The position numbers and the translations under genes were made by a program. From the NCBI GenBank assembly GCA_947470885.1, contig CANIXE010000001.1, forward strand, positions 1 to 37,824: 37,824 nucleotides of DNA. The letters run 5' to 3'. The DNA is from Planctomycetota bacterium (GTDB lineage Bacteria > Planctomycetota > UBA11346). The number at the start of each line of letters is the position of its first letter. Within the stretch, counting starts at the first letter, position 1. A model generated the notes under the pieces. It searched no databases, was not told the DNA's origin, and saw only the letters and a program-made list of their open reading frames with translations. Of the stretch, positions 1,666-37,824 are shown one piece after another.

Positions 1666-1697
1666 CTTTCAGACGACCGGACGACCGGACGTTGAAG
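1666..1697 (-). repeat. Arm-only fragment (copy D) of the structured intergenic repeat family
   Basis: GACGACCGGACGACCGGAC (1672-1690) is identical to the 19-nt arm at 32657-32675. Its flanks, CTTTCA / GTTGAAG, resemble the CTTCAATGA / TCATTGA flanks of copy A. It lies in the divergent NUDIX / methyltransferase intergenic region. Confidence 0.5.
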
Positions 1698-25089: not shown

Positions 25090-25167
25090 GGTCCGCGTAG
25101 CTCAGTTGGTTAGAGCGCCAGATTGTGGTTCTGGATGTCGCGGGTTCGAGCCCCGTCGTGGACCCCA
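25090..25167 (+). tRNA. tRNA-His (anticodon GTG), encoded G-1 and CCA
   Basis: Manual cloverleaf fold gives an 8-bp acceptor stem including G-1:C73, D arm GCTC/GAGC, anticodon stem CCAGA/TCTGG with loop TTGTGGT, T arm with GTTCGAGC, and a 3' CCA. Confidence 0.85.
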
Positions 25168-25168
25168 C

Positions 25169-25206
25169 AACGAAGAAACCCCGGCCTAGGCCGGGGTTTC
25201 TTCGTT
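25169..25206 (+). terminator. Intrinsic terminator-like perfect palindrome after tRNA-His
   Basis: AACGAAGAAACCCCGGCC TA GGCCGGGGTTTCTTCGTT forms a ~17-bp GC-rich stem with a U-rich 3' side. Confidence 0.65.
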
Positions 25207-27253: not shown

Positions 27254-27274
27254 ACCCCGGCCAGCCCCCGAAAC

Positions 27275-27314
27275 AGAGATCCCCACGTTCCAAGAACGTG
27301 GGGATCTCTATTTC
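27275..27314 (+). terminator. Intrinsic terminator between convergent acs and the PATR/FN3 gene
   Basis: A 16-bp perfect stem, AGAGATCCCCACGTTC / GAACGTGGGGATCTCT, is followed by ATTTCATCTT. Confidence 0.7.
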
Positions 27315-30318: not shown

Positions 30319-32469
30319 TCAACCACCACCCAGTCCCTTCAGGCTGAGAGCGATGCGCTTGCGGATGAGATCCACCGTGAGCACCCGAACCTGGAGTTGC
30401 TGACGGACCGAAACCACTTCGTTGGGATCGGCGATGAACCGATCCGACATTTCAGAGATATGGATCAGACCATCCTGCTTAACCCCGACATCGACAAAGG
30501 CACCGAACCGGGTGACATTGGTGACAATCCCCGGAAGGATCATCCCGGGAACGAGGTCCTCTGGATGGTGGACCTCCGCAAAGCGGAAGACGCTGAACAG
30601 GGGACGGGGATCCCGACCTGGCTTGGCCAGTTCGGCGAGGATATCCCGCAGGGTCGGCTCACCCACCTCGGCATCACACCAGCGTTTCAGTTCAATTCCA
30701 CGGTGCAGTTCGGGCCGGCGCATCAGCTCACCAACTTCAACCTGGAGTTCCCCGGCCATCCGTCGGACCAGGGCATATCGCTCGGGATGCACAGCGCTGG
30801 CATCCAGGGGTTCACGACCCTCCCGCAGACGCAGGAAACCTGCGCACTGTTCAAAGGCCTTTGCCCCCAGACGGGGAACCTGGAGCAATTCCCGGCGGTC
30901 CCGGAAGCCCCCGTGTTCTCGGCGATAGGCAACGATGGATTTGGCCAGGGCCGGCCCGAGGCCAGACACCTGACCCAACAATTCCTCGCTGGCCGTGGAC
31001 AACTCGACCCCCACTCCATTGACGCAACTGGCCACCACCCGTTCCAGGCCTTCCCGGAGCAAGCGCTGGTCGACGTCATGCTGGTACTGACCGACTCCGA
31101 TGGATTTGGGGTCAAGCTTCACCAGTTCGGCCAATGGATCCTGCAAGCGCCGCCCGATGGAAATCGCCCCACGCACCGTCAGGTCCAGATCAGGAAATTC
31201 ACTCCGGGCCGAAACGCTGGCGGAATAGATGGAAGCCCCGGATTCAGATACCAGGACCACCGGGATGCCCAGTTGCAAGGATTCCAGGAAATCGGCGGTT
31301 TCCCGTCCCGCCGTGCCATTGCCCACCGCCACCGCCGCGGGTTTGTGGCTGGCGACCAGGCCACGAATGGTCCGAGCCGCTTCGTCTTGGCGTCGAGATT
31401 CGTGGGGGAAGATCGTGGTGCTGGCCAGCAGCCCACCCTGGTCGTCCAAGACCACTGTCTTGCCGCCAGTGCGCAATCCCGGATCCACCGCCAGCACCGG
31501 CCGCCGGCCAAATGGCGCGGCAAGCAACAATCCTCGGAGATTTTCAGCAAACACCGCGATGGCCTCGGCATCCGCCCGTTCCTTCGCCCCGTGGAGGACT
31601 TCGTTCTCCAGGGCTGGCGCCAACAGGCGCTGCCAACCATCCACCAGGGCCAGATCGATCTGTTCCCGAACCCGACCCTGATGACGGTCCGGACGCAGCC
31701 ACCGCTGGCGGAGGATGTTCAAGGCCAGCTCTTCGGGCGGTAGGGCCGAAAGTGACAGCACCCCGGACTCCCTCCCCCGGAGCATTGCCAGCAGACGATG
31801 GGAGGGGCAGCGGGCCAACTCTTCACTCCAGGCAAACCAATCCCGGAATTTTGCCGCCGCCTCATCGTCCTTCCGGCCACGGGCCACCGTGGACACCAGG
31901 CGGGCCTGACGACTGAATAATTGGCGCATTTCTCCCCGGGTGGGGGCATCCTCACTCACCGTCTCGGCGATGATGTCCCTGGCTCCGGCCAATGCCGCAT
32001 CTGCATGTAGCACCTCCCCCGTGATGAAACCCGATGGGTCCGGGAATCGCCCCCCCTCCAACAGGGACGCCGCCAGCGGCGCGAGTCCGCGTTCCCGAGC
32101 CTGCTGGGCCCGGGTGCGACGTTTCGGGCGGTGGGGAAGGTAAAGATCCTCCAGTTCCGCCAACTGTCTGGCCTTGGCAATGGCACCAGCCAGGGATGGG
32201 GTCAGAAGCCCGCGTTCTTCCAGGGATTGGAGGATCGCAATCCGTCGTTTCTCCAATTCCCGCAGACTGGCCATGCCATCCGCGATGGCGGCAATGGCCA
32301 CCTCATCCAAACCACCCGTCACTTCCTTGCGATAGCGGGCGATGAACGGCACGGTCGCCCCATCATCAAGAAGAGCAATCGTTGCCAGCACCTGTGCTGG
32401 TCGGACCTTCAGCTGGTCCGCTACTTTCGTTGCCAGGGGAAGGGGATCATGGGCGATATCAGCGGGCAT
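30319..32469 (-). CDS. tex: Tex-like transcription accessory protein (YqgF/HhH/S1 domains)
   Basis: Starting at MPADIAH (ATG 32469), the N-terminus aligns with Tex N-termini (..LLDDGATVPFIARYRKEVTGGLDE..). There is a C-terminal S1 domain (GMILPGIVTNVTRFGAFVDVGVKQDGLIHISEM). The upstream part of the 806-aa ORF runs through a non-coding repeat. Confidence 0.9.
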   Translation of the reverse strand: MPADIAHDPLPLATKVADQLKVRPAQVLATIALLDDGATVPFIARYRKEVTGGLDEVAIAAIADGMASLRELEKRRIAILQSLEERGLLTPSLAGAIAKARQLAELEDLYLPHRPKRRTRAQQARERGLAPLAASLLEGGRFPDPSGFITGEVLHADAALAGARDIIAETVSEDAPTRGEMRQLFSRQARLVSTVARGRKDDEAAAKFRDWFAWSEELARCPSHRLLAMLRGRESGVLSLSALPPEELALNILRQRWLRPDRHQGRVREQIDLALVDGWQRLLAPALENEVLHGAKERADAEAIAVFAENLRGLLLAAPFGRRPVLAVDPGLRTGGKTVVLDDQGGLLASTTIFPHESRRQDEAARTIRGLVASHKPAAVAVGNGTAGRETADFLESLQLGIPVVLVSESGASIYSASVSARSEFPDLDLTVRGAISIGRRLQDPLAELVKLDPKSIGVGQYQHDVDQRLLREGLERVVASCVNGVGVELSTASEELLGQVSGLGPALAKSIVAYRREHGGFRDRRELLQVPRLGAKAFEQCAGFLRLREGREPLDASAVHPERYALVRRMAGELQVEVGELMRRPELHRGIELKRWCDAEVGEPTLRDILAELAKPGRDPRPLFSVFRFAEVHHPEDLVPGMILPGIVTNVTRFGAFVDVGVKQDGLIHISEMSDRFIADPNEVVSVRQQLQVRVLTVDLIRKRIALSLKGLGGG

Positions 32470-32523
32470 GGCTCCATGGTGCCAGATAATCCCAGACACC
32501 AAGGAGGTTCCCCCGGAGAATAA

Positions 32524-32696
32524 CAGGGCGCCGCAATGGAACGCTGAATGTCCATGACGGAGCACTCTTTGCGGCGCCAGTCTGGTCGTCCGGTCGTCCG
32601 GTCGTCCACCAGCAGTGAGTCTTTCGGATATTCCCGCTGAACATTTGGCTTCAATGACGACCGGACGACCGGACATTTTCATTGAGGTCCCCTGCG
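32524..32696 (-). repeat. Structured intergenic repeat, copy A (full length, in the tex 5' leader region)
   Basis: Its reverse complement matches 33592-33756 with 9 substitutions and one 8-nt indel. It contains a GC-clamp hairpin (32527-32536 / 32569-32578), three tandem GGTCGTCC units (32584-32607), and the complementary 19-nt arm (32657-32675). Confidence 0.85.
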
Positions 32697-32739
32697 GAGA
32701 ATAGTTCGGTATCCGCACCATGGATGCCGGCAACACCAC

Positions 32740-32772
32740 AAAAAAAAGCCCTGATCCAAAATGGATCAGGGC
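32740..32772 (-). terminator. Intrinsic terminator of the HTH/H1-like gene
   Basis: On the minus strand, the GCCCTGATCCA TTT TGGATCAGGGC hairpin is followed by T8. Confidence 0.8.
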
Positions 32773-32807
32773 AGAAAAGCCATTATCCCACAGGGACTAA
32801 CGGAATT

Positions 32808-33287
32808 TCACGCATCCAGGATCATCGCAATGACCTTGCGCTTGTCGTCCGAGGCCTGGTGGACCGCAACGGCGAGGTCATCCGCGAAGACCCCCACCAG
32901 ATCACCCAGAGAAACCGAGGCGAGGTCCACTTCCTTGGCCCGCTTGGGAGCTTTAGCCGCCTTGGCTGGCTTCGCGACTTTGGGAGCCTGGACCGCTTTG
33001 GCGGCCTTGGGCGATTTCTCCGACTTGGCGGATTTCCCTGCCTTGGCCTTACGACCCTTTTTAGCGGGAGCATCTGCCTTCCCCACCAACGCTTTGACCT
33101 GCTCCAGATCCAGGCCAAGGAACGTGGCGTATTTGGCCAACGTCGCTGCATTGGGAACACGCCGACCGGCCATGACATCGGCCAAAGCCTGGGCGCCGAC
33201 GCCGATGGTTTTGGCCAAGGCAGCGGTCGAAATCTTCAGTTCCGACTTCTTGGCAGCGATGGCGAGGGAAAATTGGGATTTGCTCAT
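32808..33287 (-). CDS. XRE-type HTH protein with a histone-H1-like Lys/Ala/Pro-rich central tract
   Basis: 159 aa from ATG 33287. The N-terminal HTH (FSLAIAAKKSELKISTAALAKTIGVGAQALADVMAGRRVPNAATLAKYATFLGL) is followed by APAKKGRKAKAGKSAKSEKSPKAAKAVQAPKVAKPAKAAKAPKRAK and a short acidic C-terminal domain. Confidence 0.7.
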   Translation of the reverse strand: MSKSQFSLAIAAKKSELKISTAALAKTIGVGAQALADVMAGRRVPNAATLAKYATFLGLDLEQVKALVGKADAPAKKGRKAKAGKSAKSEKSPKAAKAVQAPKVAKPAKAAKAPKRAKEVDLASVSLGDLVGVFADDLAVAVHQASDDKRKVIAMILDA

Positions 33288-33322
33288 GGCACACTTTCTA
33301 ACAACACTCCGATAACATGACA

Positions 33323-33351
33323 ATCGTAAATATTCCTTTTGTCGATCCCAA
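33323..33351 (-). promoter_or_regulatory. Candidate sigma70-like promoter for the HTH/H1-like gene
   Basis: On the minus strand, TTGGGA - 17 nt - TACGAT ends 35 nt upstream of ATG 33287, in a locally AT-rich segment. Promoter consensus in this lineage is uncertain. Confidence 0.3.
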
Positions 33352-33591
33352 ACATCATAGGCGATGATTGGCTCTGCGATTCTCGTTCGACATCACACCT
33401 GCATGGCACATCACCTCCGAAACCAACAATGTCCCATGCCGGCTTGACCAAACCGTGACAATAATCTGGTCAACGTTGCCACAAAATTGCGGCTCAAGAA
33501 TGCTCATGACGTCTGGTTTTCATGGGAATTCACCCGATTTAAACCTGAACCCATATGCCAGGGAAAGCGCTGTTCAGAACACGCCCCTGAT

Positions 33592-33756
33592 CGCAGAGGA
33601 CCTCAATGAAAATGTCCGGTCGTCCGGTCGTCATTGAAGCCAAATGTTCAGCGGGAATTTCCGAAAGACTCACTGCTGGTGGACGACCGGACGATCGGAC
33701 TGACGCCGCAAAGAGTGCTCCGTCATGGACCTCCAGCCTTCCATCGCGGCGCCCTG
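33592..33756 (+). repeat. Structured intergenic repeat, copy B (full length, inverted relative to copy A)
   Basis: It has the same architecture as copy A: local helix TCAATGA (33603-33609) / TCATTGA (33631-33637), arm1 33614-33632, arm2 33682-33700, and a clamp hairpin at 33702-33753. No plus-strand gene lies downstream. Confidence 0.85.
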
Positions 33757-33859
33757 CACCTGATCGTGCCTGGAAGTTGACCCCATGTCTGGCCACACGC
33801 ACCACCCGCTTCGGGAAAGAAATCTTGAGCTGGATGCATATTTCCGCCTCATTTCCCAA

Positions 33860-34558
33860 TCATGAACGGCTATCCAGCGGGTGATAGGACTGCTTGATCT
33901 CGGTGGTCGGCTCAACCCGGTCGGCTGCCCCAAGATGTTTCCAACCAGCCATCAAACCCTGGAGACGCCAATGGCGATCCATTGGCTTATCACGGACCAA
34001 GGTCGTCATTCCACAAGGATGCCAATCCACCACCACCGTCTTTCCGGTCATCGCATTGAACAACTCCTTCAGGATTATTTCATGGGAGACAACCACCAGG
34101 CGCTGGGGGAAAGGCTTCAACGCCTTCCATTCCGCCACCATCTTGGCGATCCGCTGGGCAAGGGTTACATCAGATTCGGGATGGGCAGGCTTTCCAGCCC
34201 CCTCCCGCCGCGATTCCCATTCCGGATCCATGGACCCATTCGGACTGAATGGACTGCCCAAGACCTGGGAAAGGAGCACCTCCCCCACCCGCCAATCTGG
34301 AACCACCGGACAATCGCAGGCGGCAGCGATGCGGTCGGCAGTTTCCAGGCAACGTCGGAACGGTGAGGAAACCACCTGAATCGCTCCCCCGGAGGCTTTG
34401 ACTTGAACTGCTGTCAACTCCGCTTGCTGAACACCAATCTCCGCCAAAGCAGGATCCAGACGTTGGTAGGCCGGACTGCCCCTGACTTTGAGCTGTTGGT
34501 CCCAGGAAATCTGGTAGCCGTGACGGATTAGGGTGATGCTCTGCATAATGGAAAGCAT
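33860..34558 (-). CDS. Histidine phosphatase (phosphoglycerate mutase-like) family protein
   Basis: RHG motif (ITLIRHG) near the N-terminus and VVVSHEIIL later. The start is ambiguous (34546, 34558 or 34588). GC3 is lower than in surrounding genes. Confidence 0.7.
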   Translation of the reverse strand: MLSIMQSITLIRHGYQISWDQQLKVRGSPAYQRLDPALAEIGVQQAELTAVQVKASGGAIQVVSSPFRRCLETADRIAAACDCPVVPDWRVGEVLLSQVLGSPFSPNGSMDPEWESRREGAGKPAHPESDVTLAQRIAKMVAEWKALKPFPQRLVVVSHEIILKELFNAMTGKTVVVDWHPCGMTTLVRDKPMDRHWRLQGLMAGWKHLGAADRVEPTTEIKQSYHPLDSRS

Positions 34559-35290
34559 GCGGAGATGCCCATGTGACACAAACCCCATGGCGGCCAGGCC
34601 CCGATGCCATCCTTCGGATTATTCCCCGGAATGCGTTGACTGGCGGTATCAGGCGCTGAACGAAGCCTTGGAATCGGGTCGCCTGACAGCAATCACGTAT
34701 CACGCCGATTGGAGAAAAAGCCCCGGGTGGCATTTGCGCCGTTTCGCGGCTCCGTCGCAGAATTACACTTGGTTGCCACCTGAACACCGCCACGGCTTCC
34801 TGGGCCCACAAGGTGACTTCGAAGTCCCCAGAGATTGATCCTCAATAAGGCAGTTGATTTGGCCATTTGCAGAATCTCCGCTGTATTTGTTAAGTCTTTG
34901 CCTCGACGGTTGTTTCACCCAAATGGTGGGTCTGGAAACGCACGTGGTGCGCACCTGCTGCGTTTTCCAGGTTGATGACTCGATGGCCTATGCCGACATA
35001 CCTGGCTGTAGAACATCTCCAGGTGCACCAGTATCGTTCCCCTGGCGACACCCTGGTGGACAACGCTCGGTCGAACAATGGGAGGTTCTCCGAATACAGT
35101 CAATTTTCGCTGCCCACATAATCGACGTCAGTAGGGCATCGGCGGCTGATGGAGATGCAAGACGTCGACATACCCACCCGAAAGTCTGGGGGCAGGGCAT
35201 CAAGGACGACCCATCCACGACCAGCCCAGACAAGTCCGCGGTCATCACAGGGCAACCACGACACCGGGGGCGAATCAGGAGACCTGGAAC

Positions 35291-35336
35291 AGAAAAGGAC
35301 AAACTCGCGGTACCGGGTGGTACCGCGAGTTTGTCC
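35291..35336 (-). terminator. Intrinsic terminator after tRNA-Ser(TGA)
   Basis: An 18-bp perfect stem, GGACAAACTCGCGGTACC / GGTACCGCGAGTTTGTCC, is followed by TTTTCT on the minus strand. Confidence 0.8.
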
Positions 35337-35348
35337 AACAATTCCAAT

Positions 35349-35438
35349 TGGCGGAGGCGGAGGGATTCGAACCCCCGGAACCATCGCTGGCTCGCTGGTT
35401 TTCAAAACCAGTGCTATCGACCACTCTGCCACGCCTCC
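35349..35438 (-). tRNA. tRNA-Ser (anticodon TGA), long variable arm, CCA encoded
   Basis: 90 nt. Acceptor GGAGGCG/CGCCTCC, anticodon stem CTGGT/ACCAG with loop TTTGAAA, long variable arm, and T loop GTTCGAATC. Confidence 0.9.
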
Positions 35439-37596: not shown

Positions 37597-37696
37597 GGGC
37601 GGTCCTGGGATCGGCGACGGGGCGGTGGGGCGAGAATAAATGATGTGAACGCTCCACTTTTTGCCACTGCAGGCAGGCCCATCCCCCGGGGGAGAT

Positions 37697-37799
37697 CAGG
37701 GCGCCGCAATGGAACGCTGGATGTCCATGACGGATCTCTCTTTGCGGCGCCAGTCCGGTCGTCCACACCTGCAAATTTCAACGGGGTTTTCCATTGAGC
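37697..37799 (-). repeat. Structured intergenic repeat, copy C (short variant upstream of the 36694-37596 gene)
   Basis: Its clamp hairpin (37700-37709 / 37742-37751) differs from copy A at only 3 predicted unpaired positions. One arm unit GTCCGGTCGTCC lies at 37753-37764. A shortened 5' module retains the CTCAATG..GTTGAA helix. Confidence 0.75.
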
Positions 37800-37824
37800 G
37801 CTTGATTTCAACCTAAATGCCGCA

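Follow-up and report, generated by a model that had tools for sequence, protein, structure and literature searches.

A hairpin-forming repeat upstream of tex in an uncultured planctomycete is very probably a MITE with ISAs1-type ends

In the genome of an uncultured Planctomycetota bacterium, the spacer in front of the gene tex contains a non-coding block that recurs in inverted orientation on the far side of the neighbouring HTH gene, which raises the question of whether the block is a structured RNA, a regulatory leader or a mobile element. The window examined here is the whole stretch of 37,824 nucleotides from contig CANIXE010000001.1 (positions 1 to 37,824, forward strand; assembly GCA_947470885.1). 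An initial annotation of this window described a family of no known class that did not look like a MITE, favoured an ERIC/REP-like structured element or a cis-regulatory or small RNA, and proposed an Rfam scan, a covariation test and a count of copies with their orientation as means of checking it. Here we present evidence that the block is very probably a MITE, selfish DNA of an ordinary kind, and that it can be assigned by its ISAs1-type ends. The description of a non-coding, dispersed, hairpin-forming repeat family was right, and it is the class and the function proposed for the family that change.

That the repeat block is present, far beyond chance, was confirmed by a repeat search of the window, which returned inverted arms of 109 nt at 97% identity (32588-32696 and 33592-33700) and of 76 nt at 91% identity (32524-32599 and 33681-33756), together with a direct repeat (32509-32591 and 37682-37764). 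Copy limits were set by aligning copy A, the reverse complement of copy B, and copy C, together with their flanks; every copy starts with CAGGGCGCCGC and intact right ends close with ...GGTCCCCTG. Copy A spans 171 nt (32524-32694, plus strand) between the terminator of the HTH gene and the start of tex, with 54 nt between it and the tex ATG (32469), while copy B spans 163 nt (33594-33756, minus strand), with the HisPhos stop on one side and the start of the HTH gene on the other. These limits replace the ones first drawn (32524-32696 and 33592-33756). The intrinsic terminator of the HTH gene (32748-32772, minus strand) lies outside the element and is also kept in the related species. In a six-copy alignment (A2), A and B share 155 matches against 8 mismatches and 8 gap columns, an identity of 95.1% without gaps whose differences are 8 substitutions and one 8-nt indel, essentially the 9 substitutions, 8-nt indel and 94% reported initially; the two form inverted repeats 899 nt apart. 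A third copy of the clamp (37697-37764, 94% identical to A) belongs to copy C, which is cut by the end of the window (37697-37824, plus strand). Protein look-up with an adjoining 300-aa protein led to overlapping contigs from other samples, and the complete copy of 369 nt was found in one of these (L003, 1818-2186). Copies measure 163-171 nt, or 369 nt where a second element is nested inside, sizes within the range of a MITE (<600 bp).

The ends of these copies carry the clearest signature of their origin. Copy A has a left terminal inverted repeat, CAGGGCGCCGCAATGGAA (32524-32541, plus strand), that agrees at 13/18 positions with the reverse complement of the right one, CAGGGGACCTCAATGAAA (32677-32694, minus strand); in copy C the terminal inverted repeat, CAGGGTACCGCAATAAAA, agrees at 14/18, and inverted ends of this quality would arise by chance with P of about 3e-5 to 4e-6. 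CAGGG starts all copies of the family, and CCCTG ends all intact copies except B (CTCTG), the end types being CAGGGCGCCGCAATGG-type at the left and ...CATTGAGGTCCCCTG at the right. Directly abutting these ends, copy A is flanked by CGGAGAATAA (32514-32523) and CGGAGAATAG (32695-32704), 10-mers that match at 9/10 positions, and copy B by CGATCAGGTG on the side of its left inverted repeat (33757-33766, minus strand) and CGATCAGGGG on the side of its right one (33584-33593, minus strand), again matching at 9/10. The left flank of copy C, CGGGGGAGAT (37687-37696), has an identical right counterpart beyond the window, in L003, giving a perfect 10/10, as do the flanks of a further copy, G, which has GATCCCAGTC on both sides. 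A match of at least 9/10 between abutting 10-mers is expected by chance at 3e-5 per copy, and all four copies that retain both ends and their native surroundings (A, B, C and G) carry a 10-bp duplication. The remaining three of the seven copies (a D/A hybrid, E and F) have no matching duplication, which we would attribute to recombination or truncation. The exclusion of a mobile element in the initial annotation therefore stands in one respect, as there is no transposase inside or adjoining the block, and fails in the others: terminal inverted repeats of the CAGGG...CCCTG type are present, and so are the target-site duplications whose absence had been asserted. Together these inverted repeats and duplications, the two features by which transposon insertions are defined, indicate that the element reached its present sites by insertion, and these insertion signatures explain why it is conserved.

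Comparison with a related species provides an independent view of the tex locus. A homologue of the HTH protein with 71% identity is encoded on contig L007, where the gene order HisPhos-HTH-tex is kept, and the element is in neither of the two spacers, which measure about 80 nt (HisPhos-HTH) and 150 nt (HTH-tex). Subtracting copy A and one duplication from the HTH-tex spacer of the window leaves about 156 nt, which is similar to L007 with its 150 nt, and the two spacers align across the insertion point, with the terminator and the blocks just upstream of the ATG in common. As L007 is only about 75% identical, the insertion junction is not legible base by base, so that insertion is supported by this comparison and a precise empty site is not; among the recovered contigs, no empty site was found in a near-identical strain. 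The tex leader of L007 nevertheless lacks the element, which is therefore not a conserved tex leader. The HisPhos-HTH spacer measures 570 nt in the window and about 80 nt in the related species; copy B explains 173 nt of the difference and leaves about 300 nt of extra non-coding sequence (33291-33583). The HTH protein itself (32808-33290, minus strand) is of the XRE type, has a Lys/Ala/Pro-rich, histone-H1-like middle (AKKGRKAKAGKSAKSEKSPKAAKAVQAPKVAKPAKAAKAPKRAK) and has few homologues. Elsewhere in the window, a perfect palindrome of 38 nt (25169-25206) lies directly 3' of tRNA-His (25091-25167) and another of 45 nt, 89% perfect, lies at 27270-27314; both are probably terminators.

Further copies were recovered by exploiting the spurious ORFs that are called through the repeats. 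The exact clamp-core pattern gave only two chance matches among genome contigs, in unrelated MAGs, and the left-inverted-repeat pattern gave a single chance match among metagenome contigs, within a coding sequence, while an exact-pattern scan of viral contigs gave two chance matches; the exact clamp-core pattern is probably too strict and would miss copy D. Protein look-up returned no record of the exact tex and HisPhos proteins, and the genome, metagenome and viral collections that were scanned evidently contain little of this organism. A six-frame translation of copy A compared with the protein collection matched three ORFs, and their contigs, from the same set of samples, carry the new copies E (L012, 1038-1215), F (L011, 1160-1322, truncated at its right end) and G (L013, 9759-9921, 163 nt, with its perfect duplication). 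In total, seven distinct copies (A, B, C, the D/A hybrid, E, F and G) were obtained from the same organism in several samples and in unrelated gene contexts. The hybrid copy, in L003 (7189-7359 and beyond), equals A in its right half and differs at 7 positions in its left 85 nt; it was seen in one sample, and on its outer flank ychF (in the order ychF-recQ-nuoA) takes the place of tex. We consider that homologous recombination of A with a copy D, itself unseen, probably gave rise to it, and that it hence marks a strain-level rearrangement, with a chimeric assembly as the alternative.

Contig ends repeatedly coincide with the family. Two short contigs with the HTH gene (L009 and L010, 962 and 888 nt) stop within copies A and B, as the window does within C, a pattern of breaks within copies that is typical of a multicopy repeat in assembly. 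ORFs that run into copies include P0010 (L013, 9204-9884), P0009 (L011, 520-1407) and P0008 (L012, 997-1776), as well as an extended tex ORF in the window (30319-32739); such ORFs gain heads or tails encoded by the MITE, and when copy G is taken out P0010 acquires a different 200-aa end. An isolated 22-nt fragment of the octamer arm, GACGACCGGACGACCGGACGTT (1672-1693, plus strand), which equals the C/G-type right arm, sits in the spacer 1620-1740 with the rest of the element absent around it, and may be the remnant of an old copy. Other repeats were encountered in the same contigs. A 79-nt stretch of the window (34875-34953) recurs with 95% identity at the end of L012 (1713-1791), an unrelated contig, and is a further dispersed repeat located where a contig breaks; it lies in a gene-free interval of 760 nt (34589-35349), where the called ORF, overlapped by two tRNA-Ser genes, is probably spurious. 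The end of L011 (11244-11406) consists of an 84-nt unit in two tandem copies that are 89% identical.

Within the element, the best-conserved part of the family is the clamp hairpin GGCGCCGCAA...TTGCGGCGCC (32527-32578, plus strand), whose first base is base 4 of the left inverted repeat. Next comes an array of the octamer GTCGTCCG (32580-32607, plus strand), whose copy number varies among copies and which pairs with an array of the complement, CGGACGAC, near the right end (32656-32674, plus strand). The 10-bp GC clamp, the 19-nt complementary arms and the TCAATGA/TCATTGA helix of the initial annotation were all found, and the 8-nt indel between A and B proves to be one unit of GTCGTCCG. Left arrays hold 1-3 units and right arrays 2-4 (left/right 3/2, 2/2, 2/4 and 1/3), and since the arrays sit just inside both ends, inverted to each other, the long hairpin formerly described as arm1 and arm2 is an extended inverted repeat pairing with itself. 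Two subfamilies (A type and G type) have about 75 nt at the left and about 45 nt at the right in common and differ in their interiors. The family has no coding capacity, as all six frames are broken or shifted by octamer indels, and the peptide shared between copies was rightly judged incidental. Compared with Pfam, the MITE-encoded peptides matched no transposase or other relevant family. We also considered whether the ATG in the left inverted repeat (MERWMSMTEHSLRRQ...) might be the remnant of a transposase N-terminus and rejected the idea, Pfam support being absent and the ATG of real ISAs1 elements lying 85-145 nt inside the IS.

Copy C is a 163-nt element of the G type that has received a second element of 209 nt (L003, 1863-2071, minus strand), the first 13 nt of which, CCTAAATGCCGCA, are visible at the end of the window (37812-37824, plus strand). 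The insertion occurred at TTCAA, with a 5-bp direct repeat on both sides, and the inverted ends of the nested element (CCTAAATGCCGCATTGGATTTTTCACGCGGAGG...) are about 40 nt long, next to arrays of its own octamer, GCGGAGGC; it is a second MITE-like family. With its CC ends and 5-bp duplication it resembles, by analogy only, IS1380-type elements (compare ISArsp10, PMC6305408). When the full copy C was compared with plasmids by blastn, matches were confined to the octamer arm of the nested element: the arm CTCCGCGTCTCCGCGTGAATCC matches unannotated intergenic sites, several per record, in Sphingomonas, Sphingobium and Sphingopyxis plasmids as well as in Trichormus and Gemmatirosa. In Sphingopyxis indica pMC4 (L017, tsaD-hemC spacer, 280-440), TTCACGCGGAGACGCGGAG arms occur in inverted orientation about 95 nt apart. 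These matches suggest that the arm type is a widespread palindromic repeat.

The family to which the ends of the MITE belong was approached through published signatures and real elements. ISAs1 elements have terminal inverted repeats of 14-22 bp that begin with CAGGG, and generate a 10-bp direct repeat (PMC11946415); in ISArsp11, for example, the left inverted repeat reads CAGGGCTGATGCAAAGTCG and the direct repeat is 10 bp long (PMC6305408). Using the ISEc1 transposase of E. coli K-12 (yhhI) as a tblastn query against plasmids, we collected six elements and looked for their termini. Those of ISAzs5, ISAs1 and a Methylocystis IS are CAGGG...CCCTG, with inverted repeats that agree at 18-21/24 positions and perfect 10-bp duplications, and ISEc1 likewise has CAGGG...CCCTG termini; in the other three of the six fetched elements, the end search found none for ISKpn31 and the Nostoc element and only a poor match (8/24) for the Streptomyces element. 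The left inverted repeat of the MITE agrees with that of ISAzs5 at 12/16 positions in the same register, and with single members of the family at a modest 7-12/16. In both ISAzs5 and ISEc1 the left inverted repeat likewise pairs with the downstream leader, and the GC clamp of the MITE is plausibly a relic of the 5' leader of its parent IS. A tblastn search with six ISAs1 transposase queries gave no match in the window and 11 related loci (138 kb, redundant). We therefore rate derivation from ISAs1 below MITE status, and regard it as likely, since the element carries the ISAs1 signature.

A MITE that owes both its origin and its mobility to a DDE family distinct from ISAs1, such as an IS4-related group with duplications of about 10 bp, would be in keeping with the want of a cognate transposase in these 138 kb and with the modest agreement of the inverted repeat with any one ISAs1 member. 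Some IS4 subgroups have 8-12 bp duplications with CA- ends. The combination of a CAGGG terminus with a duplication of exactly 10 bp is nonetheless the published ISAs1 signature and was seen on three real elements, so that this origin is unlikely. Less probable still is a structured cis-regulatory tex leader or a family of small RNA genes. In its favour, copy A lies only 54 nt from the tex start codon, conservation of the clamp is high, folding of both strands is much stronger than that of dinucleotide-shuffled sequence (z = -4.2 and -5.1), and the stem substitutions in copy B, two in number, stay G-U compatible on one strand. On the other side, only three tRNAs in the window passed the Rfam gathering thresholds and no family reached its threshold at the element; the best matches of an E-value scan of 32400-33900, mostly to eukaryotic miRNA models and to unrelated sRNA models, scored a chance-level 14-25 bits where the thresholds lie at 33-100 bits. 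Across six copies the RNAalifold covariation term was +2.17 (positive values being penalising). The clamp and long hairpin contain no compensatory changes among these six young copies, a comparison of low power in which 75 of 500 shuffles score as high. These two structures hold two G-U changes and four pairs broken in some copies, and two further minor helices also include broken pairs, giving broken cells in six pairs across four helices; G39 to T, one of the differences between A and C that had been placed wholly in unpaired positions, alters an inner base pair predicted for the clamp. The long hairpin has arms of unmatched octamer number, the target duplications indicate insertion, and the related species has a tex leader without the element. 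Finally, the seven copies recovered include A and C antisense and B and G sense to their neighbouring genes, a mixed orientation that argues against a functional RNA. We thus found no support for the cis-regulatory or small RNA reading that the initial annotation had favoured.

Two further explanations accept the insertions and ask what became of them. Copy A might have been co-opted secondarily as a tex promoter, attenuating hairpin or RNA-stability element, or the A/B pair might serve to invert the HTH segment: A lies within the promoter or 5'-UTR region of tex, its clamp is followed on the tex strand by CUGUUAUUCUCC, a weak match and the sole terminator-like one, A and B are inverted repeats of about 95% identity, and recombination between copies is evident from the hybrid in L003. 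Yet the terminator-like match needs a T-rich tail that A owes to its own target duplication and that B, C and G do not have, a scan of the element gave no promoter-like site, and the HTH segment has one orientation in every contig, with no inverted form seen, which together make such co-option improbable. That A, the HTH gene and B constitute a composite transposon carrying the gene as a unit is a reading to which we give almost no credence. Two inverted copies with their left inverted repeats facing outward do flank a single gene; the outer flanks, CGGAGAATAA to the left of A and CACCTGATCG to the right of B, are unmatched, each copy has its own duplication, the gene occupies the same place in the related species without the copies, and no second locus with an identical A-HTH-B unit was seen. 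Both the composite transposon and an invertible cassette were rejected on these flanks.

As each has its own duplication, their outer flanks are unmatched and the HTH gene of the relative lacks both, A and B represent two separate insertions, and their position on either side of the HTH gene is a coincidence. Each copy of the MITE would be a non-coding deletion derivative of an insertion sequence of which only the two ends were kept. In the mechanism we envisage, an ISAs1-family DDE transposase, encoded elsewhere in the genome now or formerly, and whose identity and activity are putative, would bind the inverted repeats that begin with CAGGG, move the element and insert it at a 10-bp staggered cut, the repair of which would leave the 10-bp direct duplication. 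The octamer GTCGTCCG arrays would then gain or lose units by slippage, the parent IS would probably have contributed the GC clamp from its 5' leader, and the copies would become substrates for homologous recombination between strains. We infer that the element is neutral for expression of tex and of the HTH gene; an effect on tex expression is possible. The unusually high conservation of the clamp counts against a pure-transposon view and could hint at a further function.

For annotation, these findings remove a false lead towards a novel structured RNA in the tex leader and replace it with the remnant of a mobile element, and suspicion is due for ORFs extended or created by copies, for example the extended tex ORF, P0008, P0009 and P0010. 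The MITE family also explains the fragmentation of the assembly at about 20 kb and the point at which the source contig ends, marks sites of strain-level rearrangement, and provides a modest data point on non-autonomous derivatives of the ISAs1 family. No description of MITEs traceable to ISAs1 was found in the searchable open-access literature. A speculative scenario, to which we attach little probability, is that the family has no surviving autonomous partner and persists through use of its copies by the host, either as tuning hairpins near promoters, such as that of tex, that vary among strains, or as recombination hotspots that reshuffle gene order among strains living side by side, as in the tex-to-ychF change in L003; this would then be the first described ISAs1-derived MITE lineage, with a nested, octamer-armed MITE type that has relatives in Alphaproteobacteria and cyanobacteria.

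Viewed against known systems, the family has the properties of bacterial MITEs in general (definition in PMC2779907), being small, non-coding and mostly intergenic, with terminal inverted repeats and a target duplication. It further resembles them in its many copies, its folding into a long hairpin, its nested insertions and the recombination between its copies. Among named families, we take it to be similar in kind to Correia/NEMIS elements of Neisseria, RUP of Streptococcus, ERIC/IRU of enterobacteria and the MaeMITEs of Microcystis. Correia and RUP elements duplicate TA or short sites, and all of these named families differ from the MITE described here in their ends and duplication length and have no sequence similarity to it; unlike their hosts, the bacterium here is uncultured and known from metagenome contigs alone. 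The RAYT-mobilised REP/BIME elements are dispersed, intergenic and palindromic as well. REP elements are 20-40 nt long and have no target duplication, and an identity with REP/BIME is ruled out by the size of 163-171 nt and the 10-bp duplications of the present family. The closest comparison is with the ISAs1 family (ISAs1, ISEc1/H-repeat, ISAzs5 and ISArsp11), whose members are 1.2-1.5 kb long and encode a transposase that the 163-171 nt MITE lacks; the MITE also differs in its inverted, variable-number octamer arrays near the ends and in that its autonomous partner is putative. It has in common with these elements a duplication of exactly 10 bp, ends of the CAGGG...CCCTG type, inverted repeats that are imperfect and about 18 bp long, and a left inverted repeat whose 5' end joins the leader hairpin.
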